Origin: an uncultured delta proteobacterium | GTDB taxonomy: Bacteria > Myxococcota > Myxococcia > Myxococcales > Myxococcaceae | Length of the DNA: 64,000 nucleotides | Reading direction: 5' to 3' | Assembly (NCBI GenBank): GCA_963771175.1 | Contig: CAVYSY010000032.1 | Span: 128,001 to 192,000 of the forward strand | Part shown: positions 25,636 through 52,161 of the stretch, piece by piece | Layout: each line of letters starts with the position of its first letter | Numbering within the stretch: the first letter of the stretch is position 1 | Notes under the pieces: model-generated | What the model saw: the letters and a program-made list of their open reading frames with translations, nothing else | Databases searched by the model: none | What the model was told of the DNA's origin: nothing | Made by a program: the position numbers and the translations under genes

Positions 25636-27022
25636 ATGACCACCCTTACTGTCGACAATCCGTACACCGGGGACATCGCCTGTTCCGTCCCGCTCGCGGA
25701 TGAGGCGACCGTCAACACCCTCCTCGACCAGGCCCGTGCCGCCGCGAGGACCGTACGCTCGACTCCTCTCTCCGAGCGCAAGGCCTGGTGCGAGCGCATG
25801 GTCGCCGCCATGGAGGCACGCGCGGAGAGCATCGCCGCCGACATCTCCCGGATGATGGGCAAGCCGCTCGGCCAGGCGCGCAACGAGGTCCGCGGGATGG
25901 CCGAGCGCGCCCGCTACATGATCTCCGTCGCCGACGCGGCGCTGGCGGACATCGTGCTGCCGGACAAGGCCGGCTTCGAGCGCCGGATCATCAAGGAGCC
26001 GCTCGGGGTGGTGCTCGATCTCCCCGCCTGGAACTACCCGCTGCTCACGGCGGTGAACGTGGTGGTCCCGGCGGTGCTTGCGGGCAACGCGGTGGTGGTG
26101 AAGCACTCGCCGCGCTCGCCGTTGTGCGGTGAGCACTTCGCCCGTGCCTTCGCGGAAGCAGGCGCGCCCAGGCACCTTGTCCAGGCGATGCACTGCGACC
26201 ACCCCACCAGCGAGCGCATGGTGGGAGATCCGCGCGTCGACCATGTCGTGTTCACGGGCTCGGTGTACGGCGGCCAGAGGCTCGTCCAGGCAGCCTCCAA
26301 GCGCTTCATCCACATCGGTCTGGAGCTGGGCGGGAACGACCCGGCCTACGTGGCGCCGGACTGCGACTTCGACAAGACGGTGGAGAACGTGGTCGACGGC
26401 GCCATGTACAACGCCGGCCAGAGTTGCTGCGCGGTGGAGCGCGTCTACGTGCACCGCTCCCTCTACAAGCGCTTCATCGAGGCGTGCGAGACGCTCGTGC
26501 GCGGCTACGTGCTCGGCGATCCGATGAGTGACAAGACGTCCCTCGGGCCCATCGCCCAACCGAACCACCCGGCCGAGCTGGATCAACTGGTGGAGGACGC
26601 CCGCCGCAAGGGAGCCCGCGTGGTGGCCGGCGGCAAGCGGCTCCAGGTGGATGGCAAGGGCCGCTTCTTCGAGGCCACCCTGCTCGCCGATCTGGATCAC
26701 TCGATGCGGCTGATGAAGCAGGAGTCGTTCGGTCCCCTCCTCCCCATCGCCCCGGTGGACTCGGACGAGGAGGCGCTCGCGAAGATGAACGACTCGGAGT
26801 TCGGGCTGACCGCCAGCGTCTGGACGAAGGACCGCGAGCGAGCCGCCCGCTTCGCCACCCGAGCTCGAGTGCGGCACCGTCTACATGAACCGCTGCGACT
26901 CGGTCGACCCGGCGCTGCCGTGGATTGGCGTGAAGAACTCGGGGCGCGGGCACAACCTGAGCACCCTCGGGTTCGACCAACTCACCCGACCGAAGTCGAT
27001 CCACTTCCGGCTGTCGTTCTAA
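25636..27022 (+). CDS. Aldehyde dehydrogenase (frameshift near 26860)
   Basis: AWNYP, FTGS, LELGGND, GQSCCAVER, ESFGP and YMNRCDSVDPALPWIGVKNSGRG (shifted frame). Confidence 0.92.
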
Positions 27023-32700: not shown

Positions 32701-34325
32701 TTACCGGTTCATCGAGCCGAGGAATTCGGCGTTCGACGCCGTCGGACGCATGTGCTTGAGCACAAATTCCATCGCGTCGATCGGCGTGAACGGGTGCAGC
32801 ACCTGACGCAGCGCGGTGATCCGGATGAGGTCCGACTGGGACAGGAGCAGCTCCTCCTTGCGCGTACCGGACTTGTTGATGTCCAGCGTCGGGAAGATGC
32901 GCTTCTCCATCAGCTTGCGGTCCAGGACGATTTCCGAGTTACCGGTGCCCTTGAACTCCTCGAAGATGACCTCGTCCATGCGGCTGCCGGTGTCGATGAG
33001 CGCGGTGCCGATGATGGTGAGGCTGCCGCCCTCCTCGATGTTGCGCGCGGCGCCGAAGAAGCGCTTGGGCTTGTGCAGCGCGTTGGCGTCCACGCCGCCG
33101 GACAGAATCTTGCCCGAGGGCGGCACCACCGTGTTGTAGGCGCGCGCCAGACGGGTGATGGAGTCGAGCAGGATGCACACGTCGTGCTTCTGCTCGACCA
33201 GGCGCTTGGCCTTGTCGATGACCATCTCGGCCACCTGCACGTGACGCGTGGCGGGCTCGTCGAAGGTGGACGACGACCACCTCGCCGCGCACGTTGCGCT
33301 CCATGTCCGTCACTTCCTCGGGCCGCTCGTCCACGAGCAGCACGATGAGGTAGACGTCCGGGTGGTTCTTGCGCGATGGCGTGCGCGATGTTCTGCAGCA
33401 GCACCGTCTTGCCCGCCTTCGGCGGCGCCACGATGAGGCAGCGCTGGCCCAGGCCGATGGGGCAGAACATGTCGATGATGCGCGTGGTCATCTCCGACCC
33501 CTCGTGCTCCAGCTTGAGCTTGCGGGTCGGGTAGAGCGGCGTGAGGTTGTCGAAGAGGATGCGCTCGCGGGCCGCCTCGGACTGCGGGTCGGCGAAGTTG
33601 ATCTTGTCCACCTTCTGCAGCGCGAAGAAGCGCTCGCCCTCGCGCGGCTGGCGGATGGGGCCCGTCACCGTGTCGCCCGGCCGCAGGTTGAAGCGGCGCA
33701 CCTGCGACGGCGAGACGTAGATGTCGTCCGGGCTCGGCTGGTAGTCGCTGTCCGCGCTGCGCAGGAAGCCGAAGCCGTCGCTCGAGCAGCTCCATCACGC
33801 CCTCGGCGTGCACCTCGAACTTCTTGTCCGCGATGCCCGACAGCAGCGCGAAGATGAGGTCCTGCTTCTTCAGGCCCTGGTAGCCCTCGATGCCGAAGTC
33901 GTGGGCCATCTTCGCCAGGTCGGTGATCTTCATCCGCTTCAGGTCATTGAGCTTGATGACCTGCATCGGCGCGCCATCGCGCGTCACCTCGGTGACGACG
34001 GGCGCCTCGACCGGCTCGGGAGCGGCGGGCTGCTCGCCGGGTTCCTCTTGACCTCGGCGGCGCGAACCTCCTGGTACTCCTCGTCGCGCACGGGGTGGGA
34101 GGGGATGGGCGTCAGCACCGGGCGTGGCGTCTCGGCGACCTCGGTGGACGCAGAGGCCTCGACCTCGGTGTCCTCTTCCCGACGGGCCGCCGTCCGGCGA
34201 CGCGCCGGCTTCTCGGTGTCATCCCGGTCCGCCGCCTTGGCCCGCGTCGTGCGACGCTTGGGCTTCTCCTCTTCGGAGGGAACGACTTCCAGGACCTTCT
34301 CTTTGGGGGAACGGGCTTTGGCCAT
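32701..34325 (-). CDS. rho: Transcription termination factor Rho with N-terminal charged extension (frameshifted)
   Basis: [60 protein letters not shown] and [10 protein letters not shown]. Confidence 0.96.
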
Positions 34326-34500: not shown

Positions 34501-37417
<2,917 letters not shown>

Positions 37418-42642: not shown

Positions 42643-44746
42643 TCAGCGCCTCATGCGGCACGGCGCGACGAGCCGCCCGAGCGGGCGGATCTGCAGGTCC
42701 AGGTCGAGCTCGCCGTAGGTCAGCACCGCCACGTCGGGGAACGCGCCCTCGCACAGCTTGCGCAGCGGGCGCCGCACGTCCGGCGCGGTGAGGCAGCACG
42801 GCGTCCGCCGCCGGCGGCGATGCGCCGCACCCCCTCGAGGATCGCCGCCACCCGCTCGGGCTCGGGCGCCGGCCCGCGAGGCCCCGTGGCGCGCAGCGTC
42901 TCCTCGATCGCCGGGTCCACCAGGTAGGCGTACAGCGGCCCGGACGGGGCGTACTTGTGGCTGAGGTAGCGGTGCAGGGCCTGGCGGCAGCGCTCGGCGA
43001 GGGCCGTGGCATCCCCCTCGGTCGTGGGCGAGACCAGCGCCTCGAGGATGGCGCGCATGTTCCGGATGCTGACCTGCTCCTGCACGAGCTTGCGCAGCAC
43101 CTCGGTGAGCAGCGGCAGCGGCACCTTCTGGAGCGCCTCCTTCACCAGCGCCGGCGCCTGTGACTCGAGCCCGTCGAGCAGCCCCTGCACCTCCTGGACG
43201 CCGAGGAGCACCGCCGCGCGCGCCCGGACGAGGCTCCGCAGGTGCTCGGCGATGAGCTCCCCCGGGCGCCGCACCGCGACCTGCGCCATCTCCAGGCGCT
43301 GCGCGCCCGTCCTCCGGCACCCGGCTGATGGGCCTGCCGGTGGCCGGGTCCACCGCGGGCTCCGCCTTCACCTCGAGGAAGGCGAGCTCCTCCGGCTGCG
43401 CCAGCGCGTAGAGCGCCCCGGGCACGACCTGTCCCATCCGCCGCGGGGACCTCGTCCACCAGGATGCGGTAGGTGCCCGCCGGCAGGTACGCGGCGTCGG
43501 TGCGGACGCGGATGCCCGGCACCCGCACGCCGAGCTCGAAGAAGAGCTCGTCGCGCAGCCGGTTGAGCTCCTGGTGCACGAAGGCGCCGCCCTGCTCCTG
43601 CGCGATGGGCGTGAGATCCGGCGCGAGGTCGAGGGTGAGCGGGGACACGCCCACCGGCGCCACCGTGCTCTCCGGGGGCGCTCCCGGTCCGCCTTGAGCC
43701 GCCGCTCCTGCCTCGGGCTTGCCCGTCGGCCGGCTCCGCGGCGGCGTCCTCCTCCGCGGCGGCGGCCTTCACGTACTTGAGGCGCATGCGCGAGTCCTCC
43801 CAGCGGCAGCGCCCAGCCCGAGGAACGTCAGGTGCGGCATCCCCGGCATCGCGGCGAGGGCCACGCACAGGCCGGCCACGACCCAGAGCGCCTTGCGACT
43901 CGCCGAAGAACTGCGCGCCGATCTCCGCGCCCAGCGAGTCGTCCTCCTTCTCGGAGGCCACGCGCGTGACCACCAGGCCCGCGGCGACCGCGATGCACAG
44001 CGAGGGAATCTGCGAGACCAGGCCGTCGCCGATGGCGATGAGCGCGTAGGTGCGAGGCCGCCTCGGCCAGCGTCATCCCGTTCTGCAGCACGCCGATGCA
44101 GATGCCGCCCAGGAGGTTCACCGCGACGATGACCAGGCCGGCGATGACGTCGCCCTTCACGAACTTCATCGCGCCGTCCATCGCGCCGAACATCTGCGAC
44201 TCGCGCTCGAGGTCGCGCCGCCGCGCGCGCGCCTGCGCCTGGTCGATGGCCCCCGCGCGCAGGTCGGCGTCGATGGACATCTGCTTGCCCGGCATCGCGT
44301 CCAGGGTGAAGCGCGCGGAGACCTCGGCCACGCGCTCGGCGCCCTTGGCCACCACCAGGAACTGCACCAGCGTGAGGATGGCGAAGATGACCGCGCCGAC
44401 GACGTAGTCGCCCGCGCACCACGAACTCGCCGAACGCCTGGATGACCTCGCCCGCGTGTCCCTCCGCGAGCGCCAGCCGGGTGGAGGAGACGTTGAGCGC
44501 GAGCCGGAAGAGCGTGGTGACCAGCAGCAGCGTCGGGAAGGACGTGACCTTCAGCGCGTCCCGCGCGTAGAGCGCCGCCACCAGCAGCGCCACCGCCGCC
44601 GCCAGGTTGATCGCGAGCCCCAGGTCGAGCAGCCAGGCGGGCAGCGGGACGATCAGCGCGCCGAGCATGGCGGCCATCGCCACGGCGAGCACCACGTCCG
44701 AGGACTTCGCGAGCCCGTCAGCGAGCATCTTCACCAGTTGGTTCAT
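42643..44746 (-). CDS. sctV: T3SS export gate SctV/FlhA family (multiple frameshifts)
   Basis: [63 protein letters not shown] and [13 protein letters not shown]. Confidence 0.93.
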
Positions 44747-45800
44747 GACGTCTGCCTCCGTGGACGGTCGTCCACGTCCGCGCTCCGTGCGCGACCCGCA
44801 GCACCGCCGCGGCGGCCTGGTACAGCTCCTCGGGGATCTCCTCGCCCACGTCGTAGTGGATGAGGCTGCGCGCCAGCGGCGATGTCCCGAACCACCGGGA
44901 TTCCCAGGCGAGCGGCCTCTCGCCGCAGTGCGAGCGCGTCCTCCTCGCGCGCCTTGGCCACGAGGTAGGGCGCCTCGCACTCCTCCGGGGCGTAGCGGAG
45001 CGCGACCGCGATGTGGGTCGGGTTGACGACCACGACGCGTCGGCCTTTTGCACCCCTCGTGCCGGGCCTCCCGGCGCCAGCTGCCGGTGCAGCGCCTTGC
45101 GCTGGCCCTTGTGGTGCGGGTCACCCTCGCTCTCCTTGTGCTCCTGCTTCACCTCCTCGCGGCGTCATCATCAGGTCCTTGACGTGCCGCCGACGCGCGA
45201 GCAGCGAAGTCCCCCACGCCCAGCACCAGCAGGACACACGCGAGCCGGGTGACGAGCGGCCCGAGCCGGTCCCAGGACAGCTCCAGCGCCAGACGTCCCC
45301 TCGCAGCCAGGCCGTGCGGAGCACGTCCGGTGCCGGCCTCCACGGCCGCGCTCCAGACGAGCCACACCACCACCGCGGCCACCAGCAGCGCCTTGCCCAC
45401 CTCGATGAGCGGCTCACGCTGAAGAGCGCTTCAAGCCCGCCGCCGGGTTGATGCGCTCGAGCTTCGGCGTCACGTGCTCCGCGTTGCAGCTCGAAGCCCG
45501 ACCGTGGCCACGGACACCGCCAGGGACGCCAGCAGCGCGCCGACCGAGCACGGGGCCCACCAGGAGCACCGGCATCGCGCCCCGCCTCTCCAAGGCCCCC
45601 GTGGGCTCGCTGGTCGAGCAGCAGCCGGGCCGTCCAGTCCTGCAGCCGCGCGAAGCCCGCGCCCGCCGAGGCGGTGAGGCCGAGCAGCTCCTCCGAGCGT
45701 CACCGCGCTGGAAGAGAGGAGCCGGCTGCGGGGCATCTGCCCCTTGCGGCGCGCCTCCCGCAGCCGCTTCGCGCGAGGGCTGCTCGGTCTTCTCGCTCAT
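44743..45800 (-). CDS. sctU: T3SS switch protein SctU/FlhB family (multiple frameshifts)
   Basis: MSEKTEQPS, PKLERINPAAGLKR, EHKESEGDPHHK, VVNPTHIAVALRY autocleavage motif and EEIPEELYQA. Confidence 0.9.
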
Positions 45801-46600
45801 CGCGCCAGCTCCGCCAGCCGCAGCAACGCGGCGTCCACCGAGAGGACGCCCGCGAGCAGCCGCTCACAGAGGATCCCCACGCCGAGCCACAGCAGCGCCG
45901 CCGCCGCCGAGGATGCGCAGCGGTGCGCCCACCTCCTGGAGGTTCACCTGGGGCGCGGCGCGCGAGGCCAGCCCGAGCGAAGCAGTCCACCGCCATCACC
46001 GCCGCCGCGACCGGCGCCCCCACCGCGAGCCCGGTGGCCATCGCGCCGCCGACCAGCGCCACCACGTGCAGCGCCGCCGCCTCGGTGGGCACGATACGCG
46101 CCCAGCCGCACCCACGCCGAAGCCACGCACCAGCCCCGAGAGGACGATGCGGCAGCAGCCCTCCCGTCACCACCAGCGCGACGAGCAGCTGGTAGAGCCC
46201 GTCGCCGGTGGCCGACTCGCGGCGTCCCGGCCACCGGCAGGCTCGCCTCCGCCGAGGTGCCGCGGAAGAGGTCGATGAAGCGCCCGCCCATGCGCGCCGC
46301 ATCGAAGGGCAGCGCCGCGACGAGCCCCACCGAGGTGCCCGTAGGCGAGCTCCTTCAGCGCCAGCGCCGCGCAGCTGCAGCGGCGTCTCCACGGGCGCCG
46401 GCAGCGCCACTCCCGCCACATGGTGCAGGAAGAGCGAGAGGCTCAGCACCAGGGCGAGCTTCACCGTCGTCGGAGCGGCCTGGCCTCCGAGCAGCGGGCA
46501 GAGGAAGGCGACCGGCAGCAGGCGCGCGGAGCACAGGGCCACGGCCACCACGTCGGGCCCCAGCAGCGTCGAACTGCGCGCGGAGGAGCGCGAGGTTCAC
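45797..46600 (-). CDS. sctT: T3SS export apparatus SctT/FliR family (frameshifted)
   Basis: ARLLPVAFLCPLLGG, ARMGGRFIDLFRG, RAAPQVN; position between sctS and sctU. Confidence 0.85.
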
Positions 46601-46866
46601 GCCGCCACCTCGGCGATGACCAGCAGGAGCTGGTGCGTGAAGCGGGTGAGCTGGCCGGCAATCCAGGGGCCGGCGAGCACCAGCGCCAGCACCGCCGCGC
46701 ACAGCTTGGGCACCACCGAGAGGGTGCTCTCCTGGATCTGGGTGGTGGCCTGGAAGAGGCTCATGAGGAAGCCCACCACCAGGCTCGCCCCGATGGGCGG
46801 CAGCGAGGCGAGGACCATCAGCAGCAGCGCCTCGCGGCCGAGCGAGAGCAGGACGTCCTGGGTCAT
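46597..46866 (-). CDS. sctS: T3SS export apparatus SctS/FliQ family
   Basis: Intact 89-aa ORF with VGFLMSLFQATTQIQESTLSVVPKL. Confidence 0.93.
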   Translation of the reverse strand: MTQDVLLSLGREALLLMVLASLPPIGASLVVGFLMSLFQATTQIQESTLSVVPKLCAAVLALVLAGPWIAGQLTRFTHQLLLVIAEVAA

Positions 46867-46870
46867 GGCG

Positions 46871-47601
46871 TCACCGGTACCCGAGGATCAGGCCCCGGGC
46901 GAGCAGCGCCCAGCCGTCCACGGCGACGAAGAGGAGGATCTTGAAGGGCAGGCTCACCTGACTCGGCGACAGCGACTGCATGCCCAGCGCGAGCAGGACG
47001 TTGGCGATGACCATGTCCAGCACCAGGAACGGCAGGAAGACGAGGAAGCCGATCTGGAAGGCCTCCTTGAGCTCGGTGATGACGAAGGCCGGGATGACCA
47101 CGAAGAGGTCCGTCCTCGTGGACCTGGTCGCGCCTCCTCCGGCGGCCGCAGCTCGCGCGCGAGGTCCACGAAGCGCGCCCGCTCCTCCGGCGCTGCCGTG
47201 CTTCACCAGGAAGCCGCGCAGCGGCTCGGTCACCTGCGCCGCGGCACGCGAGGAGCTGCGCACCCGAGCTGGGTCTCCTGGTAGGCCACCTGCCCCACGT
47301 CGTACATGCGCTCCATCACCGGCGCCATGATGTGGCCCGTCAGCACCGCGGCGAGCCCGGTGAGGACGATGGTGGGCGGCGCCTGCTGCGTGCCCATCGC
47401 CGAGCGCGCCAGCGACAGCACCACGGCGATCTTCGAGAAGCTGGTCAGCATCAGCACCGCGAAGGGCAGCAGCGACATCAGCGCCAGCATCCCCATCATC
47501 GACAGCGGGCTGCCAGCGAAGGACATCTGCGAGAACGACGGCTCCGCCGCCGAGGCCAGCCCCGGCACGAGGACGCTCAGGACGAGCAACGCGCGGCTCA
47601 T
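46871..47601 (-). CDS. sctR: T3SS export apparatus SctR/FliP family with N-terminal signal-like peptide (frameshifted)
   Basis: [40 protein letters not shown] and [15 protein letters not shown]. Confidence 0.93.
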
Positions 47602-48003
47602 GACAGGGTCTCCTTCGCCGACAGATGCGTCACCGTCCGCCGCCGGGTCCGCGTCTTCACTCGCTTGGGAGCCTGCGCCCGGCGGATCTCCGCGAAGGAG
47701 TCCCCGTAGGCCACGAGGTAGCGGCTGCCCGTCCACCTCCACCAGCGCCAGGCCGCAGCGCTGCGACAGGCCCGTCCGGGACACCACCTGCAGGCGCTCG
47801 GAGAGCGTGAAGCGGGACTCGGCCCGACCACGTCGCACCAGCCACCAGCCGAGCCCCGCCAGGGCCACCGCCCCGAGCAGCCCCCGGGCCACCGACGTCG
47901 CCGACATGCCCCCCAGCGGCGCGAGCGCGGCCAATCCCAGGATGAGGCCACACGCCAGCAGGACCTTGGTCCTCGGAGACGTGGAATCGAGCAGGGTCTT
48001 CAT
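47598..48003 (-). CDS. FliO-like membrane protein (one frameshift)
   Basis: TM helices then [22 protein letters not shown](SRYLV), matching the FliO beta-domain pattern; sits between the FliN-like and FliP-like genes. Confidence 0.65.
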
Positions 48004-48011
48004 GGGCGCGC

Positions 48012-49166
48012 TCACGGCAGCAGGGTGAGGATGCGGGCCCCCACCTCGCCCTCGATGTCCACGAGCTCGGCCCTCGCCACCGCCCGATCCCCCACTCGCA
48101 GCAGCACCGGCTCGCTCGCGTTGATGCGCAGGGGCAGCAGCGCCCCCGGCTTGAGCCCCGCCAGCTCCGAGAGCGGCAACGACAGCCGCGTCAGCTCGAT
48201 CTCCACGTCCACCGGCAGCGGGGGCATCCCCTCGCTCCGCTCGTTCACTTCCACCATGTCCGACTCCTGGAAAAGTCCGCGCCTGTGCGCGCGGGTCAGC
48301 GAGAAACCCTCGGGGCCAAAGTCACCGGCCAGCTCGAAGCCGCGCAGGACGAGGCGCCCGGTCCCGAGCAGCTGCGCTCCCTCCCGGCGCAACCCCTCGA
48401 AGAGGACGACATCCCCCAGCCCCAGCGTCTCCAGCGCCTCACGAGGCAGCGACGTGCGCCCCACGAAGCAGCGCGCGCCCAACCGCGCCGACAGCACCTC
48501 GGGAGCAATCTCCGGGTCGTGCTCCGCCGGCAGCTCCTTCAGCGCCCCCTCGAGGACCACCGCGGGCAGAAGCAGCCTCCCTCCCGCCGTCGTCCCTCCC
48601 ACCGACACCGTCAGCTCCACGCCCAGGTGACGCTGCCGGGCATCGAGGCGGGCCAGCGCCTCCGTGCGATTCATCGTCACCCCGGTGAGGCGCGGGCCGA
48701 ACCGCCGCTGCAGCTCCTCCTGCCCGCGCAGCGCGTACAGCGCCGACAGGCCCAGGAAGGCGAACGAGGCCTCCTCCAGTCGCGTCAGGCCCGTGATGGG
48801 GCCGGGCTTCGTCCCCGCTCCAGCCAGGCGCTCCAGCGCGGCGAAGAGCACCGGCGGCTCCAGCTCCAGCACCGCCGTCCCCCCCGTGGCCGACAGGTCC
48901 ACCAGGGCGAAGGCCGCCGTGTGCGCCAGCCCCGTCGCCGGCATCACCACCGCCTCCAGCAACCGCGCCTCGGCCCGGACGGGGCACCCCAGTTCCTTGC
49001 CGAGCGACTCGCACACCATCTGGAGCGCCTGTCGCGCGAGCCGTACCACCCGCGGCCGCTCGTTCAGGGTCATGTGGGCGCGCGACAGCCGGCGCGTGCC
49101 GAGTCGGCGCAGCCGCATCGGCTTCAACGTCGTGGACCGGGTGGTATCTCCAAGAGGACTTTGCAT
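48012..49166 (-). CDS. sctQ: T3SS sorting platform / C-ring protein SctQ (FliM/FliN SpoA domain)
   Basis: Intact ORF; C-terminal LPVDVEIEL...LKPGALLPL...VARAELVDIEGEVGARI SpoA domain plus an upstream SpoA-like repeat. Confidence 0.88.
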   Translation of the reverse strand: MQSPLGDTTRSTTLKPMRLRRLGTRRLSRAHMTLNERPRVVRLARQALQMVCESLGKELGCPVRAEARLLEAVVMPATGLAHTAAFALVDLSATGGTAVLELEPPVLFAALERLAGAGTKPGPITGLTRLEEASFAFLGLSALYALRGQEELQRRFGPRLTGVTMNRTEALARLDARQRHLGVELTVSVGGTTAGGRLLLPAVVLEGALKELPAEHDPEIAPEVLSARLGARCFVGRTSLPREALETLGLGDVVLFEGLRREGAQLLGTGRLVLRGFELAGDFGPEGFSLTRAHRRGLFQESDMVEVNERSEGMPPLPVDVEIELTRLSLPLSELAGLKPGALLPLRINASEPVLLRVGDRAVARAELVDIEGEVGARILTLLP

Positions 49167-49280: not shown

Positions 49281-49772
49281 TCAGCGCGTGGCTTCTCGGA
49301 TGAGCCGCTCGGCCAGCGCACACACCGCCGGGGTCGCCGCCGCGTCGGGCGGCTCCACCTGGCGCTCCGGAAAGAGGCTGCGGTGGTAGGGCGGCAGCCT
49401 CCGGAAGATCTCCCGCCGCAGCACCTCCGGCGCCTCCTCCATCACCGCCCTCAGCCGCGCCGCGGCATCCGGCCGCACGCCGAAGTCCACCGCCACTCGC
49501 GCCTGCCTCCGCGCCGAGGAGAGCGCTTCGAAGCCCGCCAGGTGCGCCTTCGCCTGCCGCGCCTCGGGCTCTCTCAAGCCGTCGAGCAGTTCCTTCGCCT
49601 GCCCCTTCCCGAGGACCAGTGCCACCAGAGCAATCCGCTCCAGCGGCAGGGAGGTCGGAGGTGGGGGCCTCGCCGGCTCCGGACGCGTCGGAGCCCGAAC
49701 CACCACCGTCTGGACCTGGTCCTGCGTCTTCGCCCCGGGACGAGGAATCCGGGTGATGCGCGTCGCCTCCAT
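49281..49772 (-). CDS. Hypothetical helical protein, positional SctK or FliG-like candidate
   Basis: Intact 163-aa ORF between sctJ and sctQ; LERIALVALVLGKGQAKELLDGL loosely recalls the FliG N-terminal repeat. Confidence 0.55.
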   Translation of the reverse strand: MEATRITRIPRPGAKTQDQVQTVVVRAPTRPEPARPPPPTSLPLERIALVALVLGKGQAKELLDGLREPEARQAKAHLAGFEALSSARRQARVAVDFGVRPDAAARLRAVMEEAPEVLRREIFRRLPPYHRSLFPERQVEPPDAAATPAVCALAERLIREATR

Positions 49773-49791: not shown

Positions 49792-50586
49792 TCACGCCAC
49801 CTTGCGCGCGGGCCCGGGAGTCACCACGGGACGCGCGGGGGCCGAAGGGGTGGTGGGCCTGGCCTCCGCCATGGCTCGGTAGTGCCGCAGGCGCAGCGTC
49901 ATCAGGATCAGCCCCACCGACAGCCCCGTGACGAACAGGGCCAGCACCGTCAGCAGCACCCGCAGCCGCGTCAGCGGAGAGGTCGCCGGCGTGGGTGCCA
50001 CCACCCTCGTGGACACCTCGTCCACCATGAGCGACACCGACTCGGCGGAGAGCCCCTCCACGCCTCCCGCGATGAGCGAGCGCAGCATCTCCCGCGAGCC
50101 CTTGATCTGCTCCGCATGGCCCGGCGCCACGCGCAGCATCGCCGAGGCCTTCGAGGGCACCGCCTGCTGCCCGGGCCTCGGTGGCGGAGGCACCACCAGG
50201 TGCACCCGCGCGAGGATGACCCCCTCCACCGTCTGGAGCGTCGTCTCCAGGCCCCGTTCCATCACCCGCACCCGGCAGAGCTGCTCCTCCACCGGCGTGC
50301 GCACCAACCCGCTCCCGCCAAAGACGTCACAGCCCTCGTCGGCGGTGGGCCTCGGCAGCCCCAGCTCCGCGAGGATCCGCACCGCGTCCGAGGACTGCTC
50401 CTCGGTCACCTCGATGGCCCATGTGGGCTTCTTGCCCGCCTCGGGCACCTTGCGCGCGTCGAGCCCTCGCTCGACGAGCACCGTCTGCAACTCGTTGGCC
50501 TGGCGCTCGTCCAGGCCGTGCTGGATTCGCTCCCGGCAGCCGGTGGCGCACAGGAGCAGGACGAAGAGACAGCGTCGGAAGAACAT
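49792..50586 (-). CDS. sctJ: T3SS inner-membrane ring lipoprotein SctJ (YscJ/PrgK family)
   Basis: ATGC lipobox, GLDERQANE, GLPRP, LETTLQTVEGVILARVHLV, KASAML, GVEGL and C-terminal TM. Confidence 0.92.
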   Translation of the reverse strand: MFFRRCLFVLLLCATGCRERIQHGLDERQANELQTVLVERGLDARKVPEAGKKPTWAIEVTEEQSSDAVRILAELGLPRPTADEGCDVFGGSGLVRTPVEEQLCRVRVMERGLETTLQTVEGVILARVHLVVPPPPRPGQQAVPSKASAMLRVAPGHAEQIKGSREMLRSLIAGGVEGLSAESVSLMVDEVSTRVVAPTPATSPLTRLRVLLTVLALFVTGLSVGLILMTLRLRHYRAMAEARPTTPSAPARPVVTPGPARKVA

Positions 50587-50596
50587 GGGGAACTCC

Positions 50597-51094
50597 TCAC
50601 ACCTGGGTCTGCAGCACCTGCTTGACGCCGCCGGTCGCCTTCTCGACGACCTTGCCGGCGAGATCGAGCTCCTGGCTCGCCCGGTACACGTGGGCCTGGA
50701 GGGCGATCAGCTCGTTCGGCGTGAACGACTTGCCGGACTGGGCCAGCTCCAGGACGTGGTCCAGCCGCTTCTGCGCCTCGCTCACGCGGTCCAGCATCTG
50801 CACCGCCTGCTGAGACCGCGCGGACTGCACCGAGTCCACCTTTCCCCCGGCCTGGACCTCCGAGGTCCCCGCCGAGGCCCGCTCCACTCCCTCCGCCTTG
50901 CACGTCCCGCGCGGCGCCTCCGTCCGCTCCGCCGGTGCCGGCCTCGGCGAGCCCTCGGTGGCGACCTGGGGCCCCGGCTGCTTCGCCTGCCCCTTCACCC
51001 CCTCCAGCACCTTGCCGAACTGCGCCTTCCCCGAGGGCTCCAGCGCGGGCGTTGCTCCCGCCCCACCAATCGCCCCCACCTTGTCGATGGCCAT
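50597..51094 (-). CDS. Probable T3SS inner-rod protein SctI-like
   Basis: C-terminal TPNELIALQ...ELDLAGKVVEKATGGVKQVLQTQ fits the YscI/PrgJ/HrpB2 pattern; immediately upstream of sctJ. Confidence 0.7.
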   Translation of the reverse strand: MAIDKVGAIGGAGATPALEPSGKAQFGKVLEGVKGQAKQPGPQVATEGSPRPAPAERTEAPRGTCKAEGVERASAGTSEVQAGGKVDSVQSARSQQAVQMLDRVSEAQKRLDHVLELAQSGKSFTPNELIALQAHVYRASQELDLAGKVVEKATGGVKQVLQTQV

Positions 51095-51106
51095 GGCTCG
51101 CCGCCC

Positions 51107-51598
51107 CTATCGGATGTTGTTGATGGCGGCCTTCGCCGAGTCGTGGCGGACCTTCATGATGTTGGAGATGGCGTTGTGCGCGCGGCTCTCCGCCTGCATC
51201 TCGTTCTGCAGGTTCATGTAGGCCAGGTTCATCTTCGCCCCCTCGGCCTGCATCTCCTTCTGCGCCGCGAGCAGGTCCCACTGGTCCCCCTTCCCCGTGC
51301 TGCCCGTCAGGCCCCCCGCACCGCTCGTGCCTCCTCCCGCCCCTCCCACGCCCCCGGGCGTCGGCATCGCCGAGGCACCCCGGATGGACGAAGTCGCCCC
51401 CGACACCACCGAGCTGACGCTCGACACCGCCGCGCTCACCGCCGCGCCTCCCGGCACCAGCGACGCCATCACCCCGGCTCCCGACCTCACCACCTCCTGC
51501 GCCGTGCGCGCGAACACCGTGCCGAAGTCGTTCTGCGGCGTCTGCCGCGCCACGGTGGGGGTGATGGACAGCGAGCCAATCCGATTGCCGTTCTCCAC
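51107..51598 (-). CDS. Putative T3SS needle/filament subunit (SctF-like C-terminus, Gly/Ser/Ala-rich N-terminal extension)
   Basis: GGAGG RBS before GTG at 51598; C-terminus NAISNIMKVRHDSAKAAINNIR resembles the PrgI C-terminus; gene order F-I-J. Confidence 0.6.
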   Translation of the reverse strand: MENGNRIGSLSITPTVARQTPQNDFGTVFARTAQEVVRSGAGVMASLVPGGAAVSAAVSSVSSVVSGATSSIRGASAMPTPGGVGGAGGGTSGAGGLTGSTGKGDQWDLLAAQKEMQAEGAKMNLAYMNLQNEMQAESRAHNAISNIMKVRHDSAKAAINNIR

Positions 51599-51638
51599 GT
51601 TGAAGCCTCCTTGCGCCTGGGTCTCGCGCCGGGGCTTC

Positions 51639-51655
51639 TTCAGCCGGCGTGCCAG
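51639..51655 (-). promoter_or_regulatory. Possible sigma54 promoter of the T3SS-like operon
   Basis: CTGGCACG-CCGG-CTGAA: perfect -24 element, imperfect -12, about 40 nt upstream of first gene. Confidence 0.45.
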
Positions 51656-51835
51656 CCGCCGGGCCGAGTCATCTCGGGTACTTGGCGTCAGCCGCTGCTC
51701 GCGCAACCCTCCACGCGGCGGAGCGCACGTCCGCGCACGTGGACGGTCGGGTGGACGGCCCGGGACGAAAAGTTGCGACCCCCGGGGGCTGCTTCAGACT
51801 GGTAGTCCCCTGTCGCACCCAGAGGAGCCGCCCCA

Positions 51836-52161
51836 TGACGCCGTCCCACGCCCCCACCCGTCTCGCCGAGCGCTACCACCCGCGCGTGGAGGCCAATTGG
51901 ATGGTCAAGGTCCACCTCGGCGAGCGCATCGTGCTCGTCAAGGCGCGCGACCTGTCCATGGCCGGCCTCTTCCTGCACGGCCACCCCGCGGACTCGGTCA
52001 AGCAGCTCACCCTGACGATTCCCCTGCCCCAGATCGCCGACATCACCACCACGTGCACCATCGTCCGCCGCGAGGCGCACGGCGTGGCGCTCGAGTTCGC
52101 CAAGCTGGACTGGGACCACATGCTCCTGCTGGCGCGCTACCTCCACCCGCGCCTGCCCTGA
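51836..52161 (+). CDS. Stand-alone PilZ domain protein
   Basis: ERYHPR (RxxxR) and DLSMAG (DxSxxG); GAGGAG RBS. Confidence 0.85.

Follow-up and report, generated by a model that had tools for sequence, protein, structure and literature searches.

Do the type III secretion systems (T3SSs) of predatory myxobacteria really lack a needle? The question is raised by a 64,000-nucleotide (nt) stretch of contig CAVYSY010000032.1 from an uncultured member of the Myxococcaceae, hereafter the window, in which a T3SS operon opens with two small genes, here called gene 1 and gene 2, followed by sctJ. An initial annotation of this DNA had proposed that the two encode a hidden needle subunit (SctF-like) and a hidden inner-rod subunit (SctI-like) of a supposedly needle-less system. 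The label "needle-less" agrees with the available passages of four publications. Abby and Rocha 2012 described the Myxo systems as being without SctF and secretin, stated that SctF "should have been found," and considered that these systems might form a periplasmic or extracellular structure (PMC3459982). A 2023 review lists SctD, SctJ, and SctI and no needle homolog (PMC10433427), a 2024 review lists neither needle nor translocon homologs (PMC10849154), and Herrou et al. 2025 described a locus without secretin, needle, and translocon, in which Tad pilus tips may replace the needle (PMC12075869).

In the literature searched, with Thiery et al. 2022 (Cell Rep 40:111340) and all supplements outside that search, no needle gene of myxobacteria is named, and the combination of "SctF" and "Myxococc" returned 0 papers from 2013 on. 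Based on the evidence presented below, gene 1 probably encodes a divergent, extended relative of SctF and gene 2 an SctI, which together with SctJ head the myxobacterial T3SS operon, and we propose a mechanism of export, docking, and stacking for their products. The needle-like family of gene 1 is the new element, as it is unannotated in the literature searched; the SctI encoded by gene 2 was already known.

The C-terminus of gene 1 resembles that of needle subunits

The gene 1 product ends in NAISNIMKVRHDSAKAAINNIR, with the stop directly after it. As needle references, we used MxiH of Shigella (plasmid pCP301) and the matching parts of four further plasmid-borne genes annotated as needle genes. 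The initial annotation had counted 11 identities of 22, ungapped and flush with the stop, against a string given as the PrgI C-terminus. This 22-residue string is the exact C-terminus of a needle protein from a Providencia alcalifaciens plasmid (L117), from which the MxiH tail deviates at two positions of 22. The count itself was reproduced with database sequences: the gene 1 tail shares 11 of 22 residues with MxiH and the same number with the Providencia SctF, without gaps and flush with the stop, and 9–10 of 22 with the three other SctF proteins, again flush and ungapped. Over the last 33 residues, gene 1 and MxiH have 12 flush identities.

In 200,000 composition-preserving shuffles, the identities rose to no more than 9, short of the observed 11, and the BLOSUM62 score for the last 33 residues to no more than 40, short of the observed 44. 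When the MxiH tail was slid along the remainder of the gene 1 protein, the maximum was 4. We also ranked every stop-to-stop frame of at least 60 aa (amino acids) in the window's own genome against the MxiH tail. The gene 1 tail came first among 86,660 frames (score 44; mean −29.9, standard deviation 10.6), and gene 1 was the sole frame with more than 7 identities of 22. It was followed by four copies of a 189-aa paralog, and rank 7 was taken by a second member of the same family.

The best-conserved columns of the gene 1 family coincide with those of SctF (Q131/Q51, K149/K69, D153/D73, I159/I79, N161/N81, and R163/R83), and gene 1 has the conserved C-terminal helix that ends at the last residue and carries the polar residues of the SctF family. 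At the sequence level, gene 1 shares with the SctF needles (MxiH, PrgI, YscF, and EscF; PF09392, TIGR02105) this stop-flush stretch of the last 33–35 residues with its conserved Q, K, D, I, N, and R.

Using hhalign, we aligned the gene 1 family (123 sequences) to five canonical SctF proteins with E 3.3e-4 and a probability of 38% over 35 columns ending at both C-termini, and to MxiH alone with E 0.0012. The gene 1–SctF alignments were flush at both C-termini in every comparison. Crossed controls were negative: the gene 1 family against MxiI gave E 0.39, and the gene 2 family against SctF gave E 0.52. Judged from these alignments, the tail of gene 1 is specifically SctF-like, and the profile link is real but modest.

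Bridging proteins of 149–160 aa from small-genome Myxococcota align to the gene 1 family over 130–131 columns (probability 96.8–97.4%, E 2.4e-10 and 1.4e-11) and have PF09392 scores of 25.6–30.2 bits (cut-off 29.4). Among the four, three were flagged above this cut-off, two of these only with neighboring matches in the frame. Positions 93–156 of the hidden Markov model (HMM) of the gene 1 family span, at 45 bits, an entire needle-like protein of 72 aa. At L107/L111 (G168:C78:17147-18241), three tandem genes encode proteins of needle size, about 72 aa; they match positions 5–70 of PF09392 at E 6.7e-4 and the gene 1 family HMM at 43–45 bits, and the trio shares its contig with an sctJ (G168:C78:3331-3900).

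We also scanned the 123 members one by one with Pfam (E up to 0.1). The commonest specific families were HrpF (17 members), T3SS_needle_F (12), and HrpA_pilin (4), with all of these matches below threshold and a best PF09392 E of 0.0019. Of the 33 families matched, 25 are considered here, the other eight having at most one member each; Flg_bb_rod, Flg_bbr_C, FliE, and the EspA family are absent among the 25. Gene 1 itself has a below-cut-off HrpF match (E 0.041) in its last 33 residues. HrpF is presumably not itself the pilus subunit. The HrpA pilin and HrpF of the plant-pathogen Hrp systems (PF09589, PF06266) account for the other weak matches of the gene 1 family; unlike the Hrp proteins, the family has no plant-associated context, and we found no counterpart there for its conserved N-terminal block. 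HrpA is treated as a longer, divergent stand-in for SctF in the available part of Abby and Rocha (PMC3459982). In the ESM Atlas, we found unnamed Myxococcota clusters only, and the rank-12 cluster, which has PF09392 on 11% of its members, is no more than a lead.

Gene 1 belongs to a conserved family with a fixed place in T3SS loci

Gene 1 is real and strongly conserved. Its start site is common to its homologs (M-ENGNRIG), and residues 1–60 carry the motifs R.G.LSITPT..RQTP..DFG.V.A and PG..V.SAAVS. The initial annotation had described a 163-aa protein with a Gly/Ser/Ala-rich N-terminal half and no PxxP turn, and this description is accurate: G, S, A, and T make up 72% of residues 40–103, and proline is absent from residues 100–163, so that there is no PxxP turn. 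The conservation of the C-terminal motif in orthologs, on which that annotation had made its proposal depend, is evident in 23 relatives, in which the final 19 residues are invariant or nearly so. Family members share three parts, namely the N-terminal block (..RQTP..[DE]FG.VL.. and PG..V.SAAVS), a variable Gly/Ser/Ala linker, and a C-terminal stretch of 60 residues with which the protein always ends (SN[IV][ML]K[VT][RK]HD[ST]AK.AI.N[IV][RH]).

A word-indexed search with gene 1 found 509 relatives. Among the 120 of these that were listed, none has a Pfam domain, and all are named "hypothetical protein" except one with a reductase-like JGI label. The profile of 23 relatives, searched against 1.84 billion representatives, recovered 1493 clusters (50% identity) at E ≤ 0.001 and 558 at E ≤ 1e-10.

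Across the phylum, the gene 1 family has a fixed place before sctI-sctJ and co-occurs with SctJ. Our synteny set comprised 80 loci from species-representative genomes, M. xanthus included, which by title are Myxococcota apart from three odd labels. A gene 2 homolog lies 3′ of the family member in all 80 loci (adjacent in 79), and downstream follow sctJ in 78 and sctQ in 72, with a homolog of the 163-aa gene between sctJ and sctQ in 65. On the opposite strand upstream, a PilZ homolog is found in 67 loci, directly upstream in most. The prgI-prgJ-prgK-type order claimed at the outset is kept in 78–80 of 80 loci, and the order of needle-like gene, rod gene, and sctJ equals mxiH-mxiI-mxiJ as annotated on pCP301. 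One locus (L032, BNCN01000001.1) is titled Comamonas sp. KCTC 72670 and is a typical myxobacterial locus with 56–73% identical proteins in the same gene order; its label or assembly may be wrong.

Among 301 sampled Myxococcota genomes, the gene 1 family occurs in 252 and SctJ in 266. These tallies include one unpublished genome (G196) that is positive for both, and without it become 251 and 265 of 300; in families f3 and f5, the weak SctJ matches (E 1e-14 to 1e-20) may represent FliF of flagella. In the window's own taxonomic family, the gene 1 family and SctJ are each present in 109 of 115 genomes, and the same six genomes are without both. Most of the sampled taxonomic families of the phylum have both; counted by genus, the gene 1 family is found in 104 and SctJ in 112 of the 136 genera sampled. 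The spread of the gene 1 family and SctJ exceeds the restriction to Cystobacterineae given in the available passages of the 2012 and 2024 papers (PMC3459982, PMC10849154). In a 2.5-Mb Myxococcota genome (G042), the genes after a 149-aa family member (PF09392 score 27.9 bits) are first one of 126 aa and then one of the sigma-70 family (L090:271-1941, minus strand); the 126-aa gene was considered as SctI-like and rejected (hhalign E 0.19).

Gene 2 is an SctI

Gene 2, whose product ends in GGVKQVLQTQV followed by the stop, is the already known SctI. The initial annotation had read its end as an SctI-type helix followed by sctJ; by hhalign, 53 columns of the gene 2 family close to the C-terminus align to MxiI (E 2.5e-4), with the much weaker SctF value given above, and the sctJ that follows is confirmed by Pfam. 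Like SctI proteins (MxiI, PrgJ, YscI, and HrpB), gene 2 precedes sctJ, and it has a C-terminal helix alignable to MxiI and a place between the needle-like gene and sctJ. It differs in its length of 165 aa against 97 aa in MxiI, with a long Pro/Ala/Gly-rich N-terminal half. Its own profile scores are below the cut-offs, both for T3SS_basalb_I (PF17001; E 0.0019, 19.1 bits against 32.4) and for T3SS_SctI (NF038054; E 0.066, 13.3 bits against 39). BLASTP of gene 2 against MxiI gave nothing, phmmer of gene 2 against PDB sequences gave no relevant match, and its family profile found no needle or rod protein there.

Of the two genes proposed as hidden, gene 1 is unannotated, whereas gene 2 homologs are publicly named YscI/HrpB family, and SctI is listed for M. 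xanthus in the available part of the 2023 review (PMC10433427). Many NCBI records call the SctI-like protein "ATP-dependent helicase HrpB," an apparent mix-up of two HrpB proteins. Because both families reach hhalign E values on the order of e-4 with negative crossed controls, the SctF-like assignment of gene 1 has support of the same order as the accepted SctI label of gene 2. Between the gene 1 and gene 2 families, the hhalign probability was 5.9%, and we do not claim paralogy.

A longer T3SS cluster contains further family members

A second T3SS locus of the window's own genome, longer than the first, lies on contig C33 (G000:C33:262001-292000; L118, L119). It comprises sctV, a 189-aa needle-like gene with chaperones, a small gene resembling the C-terminus of FlhB, one frame with SctT- and SctU-like parts, sctR, and a FliO-like gene. 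It further contains sctQ, a FliK-like gene, sctL, a FliG_C-like 523-aa gene, sctJ, an SctI-like gene, and a gene for a tetratricopeptide repeat (TPR) protein. Also present are a second member of the needle-like family, with 31% identity, and two unknown genes.

Two gene 1 family members, one per T3SS cluster, occur in M. xanthus AM003 as well, at L122:9807-10391 in the long, ATPase-bearing cluster and at L022:1800-2255 in the short one. In its long locus, a TPR protein comes after the family member (PF09392 E 0.0078), and then an SctI-like protein, SctJ, a 721-aa FliG_C-like protein, SctL, SctN (661.7 bits, above cut-off), FliJ/SctO, a 313-aa FliK-like protein, and SctQ. Judged by content, namely its SctN, SctL, and LcrH homologs, this locus probably corresponds to mxan_2434-2464, which has been studied as T3SS*. 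We take its order to be that of Yersinia yscF-G-(H)-I-J...L and yscN-O-P-Q. In Yersinia, yscF is directly followed by yscG, and in the same way the long-cluster paralog of gene 1 is followed by a TPR chaperone-like gene. The TPR protein has LcrH/SycD and SctY matches in both genomes and a CdsG match (E 2.4e-4) only in the window's own genome.

The FliK-like proteins pass the Flg_hook cut-off of 29.8 bits in both genomes (32.1 in the window's own genome and 32.7 in M. xanthus) and sit between the FliJ/SctO gene, named as such in M. xanthus, and sctQ. The M. xanthus ruler candidate (L122:967-1905, minus strand; AM003, G301:C374) has 313 aa and occupies the sctP position. The literature passages covered do not mention a ruler for the M. 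xanthus T3SS. A chaperone-like gene after the subunit gene and a ruler-type protein would be expected of a system that builds a polymer and measures it.

A needle-like protein that ends in SNVIKMRGETQKSIIGNIR occurs in four copies in the window's own genome (L001-L004; twice in tandem on contig C28, once each on C33 and C31). The length of 189 aa holds for the three copies with open reading frames read, L004 being known from an identical PF09392 match only. The scanned paralogs have PF09392 matches (positions 20–71) with E values between 1.3e-5 and 3.3e-5; TIGR02105 is matched by the L003 copy (L003:1495-2064, minus strand) at E 3.9e-4. Gene 1 and the 189-aa paralog are 36% identical over 64 aa by BLASTP (E 2e-7). 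The L003 paralog lies between two TPR genes of the SycD/LcrH family, one of them above its cut-off (111.2 against 104.8 bits). These paralogs resemble T3SS substrates that have chaperones and are of a filament or translocator type. EspA is a protein of about 190 aa that polymerizes via its C-terminal helix, and the 189-aa paralogs, which share the tail of gene 1, are akin to it in size. Unlike gene 1, they are not beside sctI-sctJ and have a longer PF09392 match.

Weighing the needle assignment against alternative explanations

Several observations weigh against the assignment of gene 1 to the needle proteins, and we discuss them here together with the alternatives on which they bear. The first set concerns the form of the protein and of the system. 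Our AlphaFold2 model of gene 1, built from 123 sequences, has a mean predicted local distance difference test (pLDDT) score of 75.5, a predicted template modeling score of 0.37, and helices at residues 25–44, 52–70, and 105–162, with pLDDT above 90 in the last helix and about 80 in residues 11–40 (a first model from 23 close relatives reached a pLDDT of 53 and was not used). In this model, the C-terminal part is a single straight helix, 58 residues long and unbroken, and no hairpin is formed where the PxxP turn would be. SctF proteins, in contrast, are hairpins of about 70–90 aa with such a turn, and compared with their roughly 80 aa, gene 1 has about 100 additional N-terminal residues, consisting of the conserved motif block and the Gly/Ser/Ala linker. 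Because neither its profile scores nor its size and turn are those of the family, gene 1 is not a canonical SctF. It also differs from canonical SctF in that its product belongs to a system described in papers as being without secretin and translocon.

By Pfam, there is no secretin gene in the window between about 26 and 64 kilobases (kb) or in the long-cluster stretches scanned, and hence no obvious route out of the cell; nor is there an ATPase, stator, or SctD gene in that part of the window. Because ATPase, stator, SctD, and secretin were not found there, we assign the window locus to the short type of myxobacterial T3SS loci. By the precedent of flagella, in which several short rod layers are stacked, gene 1 might encode a second rod-type or adaptor layer instead of a filament, with few copies forming one or two helical turns on SctI and closing or extending a periplasmic channel below the outer membrane. 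We consider this unlikely. The single long modeled helix without a hairpin would suit such a layer, as would a likeness to SctF that is confined to the C-terminal helix, SctF and SctI being alike in build, and the lack of secretin and translocon, of which our family scans named none and which the available passages also report for these loci (PMC3459982 among them). Against a mere layer stand the tail of gene 1, which matches SctF and not SctI, and two features of the long cluster: a FliK-like ruler above the Pfam cut-off and a TPR chaperone-like protein after the paralog. FliK-type rulers measure a growing polymer, and such TPR chaperones serve subunits that are otherwise prone to polymerize.

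The second set concerns detectability. The hhalign probabilities between the gene 1 family and SctF are just 18–38%, and the aligned portion covers the last 33–37 residues only. The gene 1 protein has no PF09392 match at E up to 1 in Pfam and no TIGR02105 match in NCBIfam, and BLASTP against MxiH gave no alignment. A six-frame PF09392 search gave gene 1 10.3 bits (E 7.6, cut-off 29.4), a threshold at which 6 of 14 control genomes match too, and was not used as evidence. Neither phmmer nor hmmsearch, with the gene 1 protein or the 23- and 123-sequence profiles, found a needle protein among all PDB sequences; the best match of the gene 1 and gene 2 family profiles was a hemolysin BL component (E 0.009) in a low-complexity part. 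Foldseek of the gene 1 model against the PDB returned no match (one row, E 9.8), and VIA-align against 48,161 chains returned generic coiled coils only (Z ≤ 5.9), with a long single helix unable to discriminate. The profile or structure match to needle proteins that the initial annotation had asked for was thus obtained with profiles, modestly, and not with structures. A prediction of the complex between P0001 residues 95–163 and P0002 residues 95–165 scored 0.01 against a mark of 0.32, was run without controls, and speaks neither for nor against binding.

These results bear on whether the resemblance is convergent or spurious, gene 1 being an operon coiled-coil protein without common descent from SctF. 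Direct profile scores of the window protein that are all below curated cut-offs, an hhalign probability of at most 38%, and structure searches that match any long helix are what convergence would produce. We nevertheless consider it improbable, given that no shuffle of 200,000 and no other of 86,660 frames matched as well, that every comparison was flush at both C-termini with negative crossed controls, that bridging members lie at or just under the PF09392 cut-off, and that the gene order is that of Shigella.

Two further points count against the assignment. A precomputed PF09392.17 label is found on relatives of gene 2, in 116 of 120 listed rows; we could not reproduce it on the SctI-like family with PF09392.15 or hhalign. 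RNA support for the M. xanthus short-cluster ortholog is thin: in one run of raw reads, its depth was 11–45 in the sense-consistent orientation and 7–35 in the other, while the neighboring PilZ gene was clearly stranded (up to 120 against 16–23), which is weak evidence of low expression. Contigs of three RNA libraries span the M. xanthus locus and do not demonstrate its transcription.

It is very improbable that gene 1 encodes an exported nonstructural substrate (a regulator, gatekeeper, or sigma-factor partner) whose needle-like tail enters or plugs the channel, since its invariant place before sctI-sctJ and its co-occurrence with SctJ fit a core structural part and no FlgM anti-sigma or gatekeeper family is among the 25 families considered for the 123 members, even though a sigma-70-family gene lies two genes away from the family member in one small-genome lineage, the 60 conserved N-terminal residues exceed the needs of a plain secretion signal, and the commonest weak Pfam match (17 of 123) is to HrpF, presumably not the pilus subunit.

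Proposed mechanism

Having weighed these alternatives, we return to gene 1 as an extended SctF relative, and we infer that its product works like a needle or rod subunit. Export, docking, polymerization, and the end point of the structure are likewise what we infer from the combined evidence. The export gate SctRSTUV would take both small proteins as early substrates. Both carry an FG.V[LFM] motif, equally far from the N-terminus (about 25 residues). Evans and colleagues are said to have given F-x-x-x-hydrophobic as the gate-recognition consensus in 2013. In the available passages of Bryant et al., early flagellar subunits dock on FlhB by means of a small hydrophobic gate-recognition motif, which SctI, SctF, SctP, and OrgC have conserved and which lies at least 30 residues from the N-terminus (PMC8983047), slightly farther than in genes 1 and 2. 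By analogy, the FG.V[LF] motifs of the two proteins may dock on SctU.

After export, SctI would form the first axial layer on SctRST. The SctF-like protein would then use its C-terminal helix, in which the most conserved residues are those conserved in needle proteins too, to stack on SctI, and would give rise to a periplasmic axial structure, either a stub or a filament. Outside the helical core would lie the 60 conserved N-terminal residues and the Gly/Ser/Ala linker.

Other features of the window

The two genes lie exactly where the initial annotation had placed them, both on the minus strand, and their coordinates are collected in Table 1 with those of their neighbors. The divergent PilZ gene upstream hints at control of the window T3SS by cyclic di-GMP. 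Between positions 26000 and 48100, housekeeping and T3SS genes are split over several frames (rho, 32704-33794; ligA, 34545-36473; sctR, 46871-48015; sctV, 42643-45124). Relatives keep single frames, as with sctR, which is one frame in L006 and L010, and this points to assembly errors (indels) and not to decay of the genes. Genes 1 and 2, unlike these frame-split neighbors, are intact.

Table 1. Positions of the features discussed, in window coordinates
Feature	Position	Strand	Remarks
Gene 1 (P0001), extended SctF-like, first gene of the operon	51107..51598 (stop included)	−	163 aa + stop
Ribosome-binding site GGAGG	51606..51610	−	7 nt 5′ of the gene 1 GTG start; direct reading
Gene 1 conserved N-terminal region, residues 1–60	51419..51598	−	Invariant or nearly invariant columns in alignments of 23 and 123 sequences
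Gene 1 candidate gate-recognition-type motif, F25-G-T-V-F29	51512..51526	−	F25 nearly invariant; consensus FGxVL
Gene 1 Gly/Ser/Ala/Thr-rich variable linker, residues 61–103	51290..51418	−	Homologs differ in length and sequence; pLDDT 51–64
Gene 1 C-terminal helical domain, residues 104–163	51110..51289	−	SctF-like portion is the final 33–35 residues
Gene 2 (P0002), SctI-like inner-rod gene	50597..51094	−	165 aa + stop; begins 12 nt after the gene 1 stop
Gene 2 FG.V[LMFW] motif, residues 26–30	51005-51019	−	F26 and V29 invariant in 25 relatives
sctJ, inner-membrane ring lipoprotein	49792..50586	−	10 nt after gene 2; Pfam YscJ_FliF E 4e-18, above cut-off
Conserved 163-aa gene between sctJ and sctQ	49281..49772	−	No Pfam or NCBIfam family matched
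sctQ	48012..49166	−	FliMN_C E 3.7e-17
sctR (FliO-like N-terminal part), sctS, sctT, sctU, sctV	42643..48015	−	FliP, Bac_export_3, Bac_export_1, Bac_export_2, and FHIPEP matches over several frames
PilZ-domain gene, divergently transcribed	51649..52161	+	PilZ E 1e-7

Implications for myxobacterial T3SSs

A further-reaching reading, which we put forward tentatively as a possibility, is that the predatory myxobacterial T3SS is not needle-less. The exported SctF-like subunit would polymerize on SctI into an axial filament, with its length controlled in the long cluster by the FliK/SctP-like ruler. The filament might remain periplasmic or be handed to an envelope machine such as the Kil Tad apparatus, and the extra N-terminal domain might be a new decoration or a built-in partner helix. 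If there is such a filament, the needle would predate the secretin, given the basal branching of the myxobacterial systems in the injectisome tree.

Were this true, it would affect published models that rest on the absence of a needle, both the loss of SctF in the Myxo branch and Tad pilus tips taking the needle's place, and it would alter the reconstruction of how the injectisome originated from flagella. The question can be addressed directly in M. xanthus, because the gene is present in both of its T3SS clusters. For this predator, whose T3SS is needed for prey lysis, the SctF-like protein would provide a structural candidate for the passage of substrates beyond the inner membrane.

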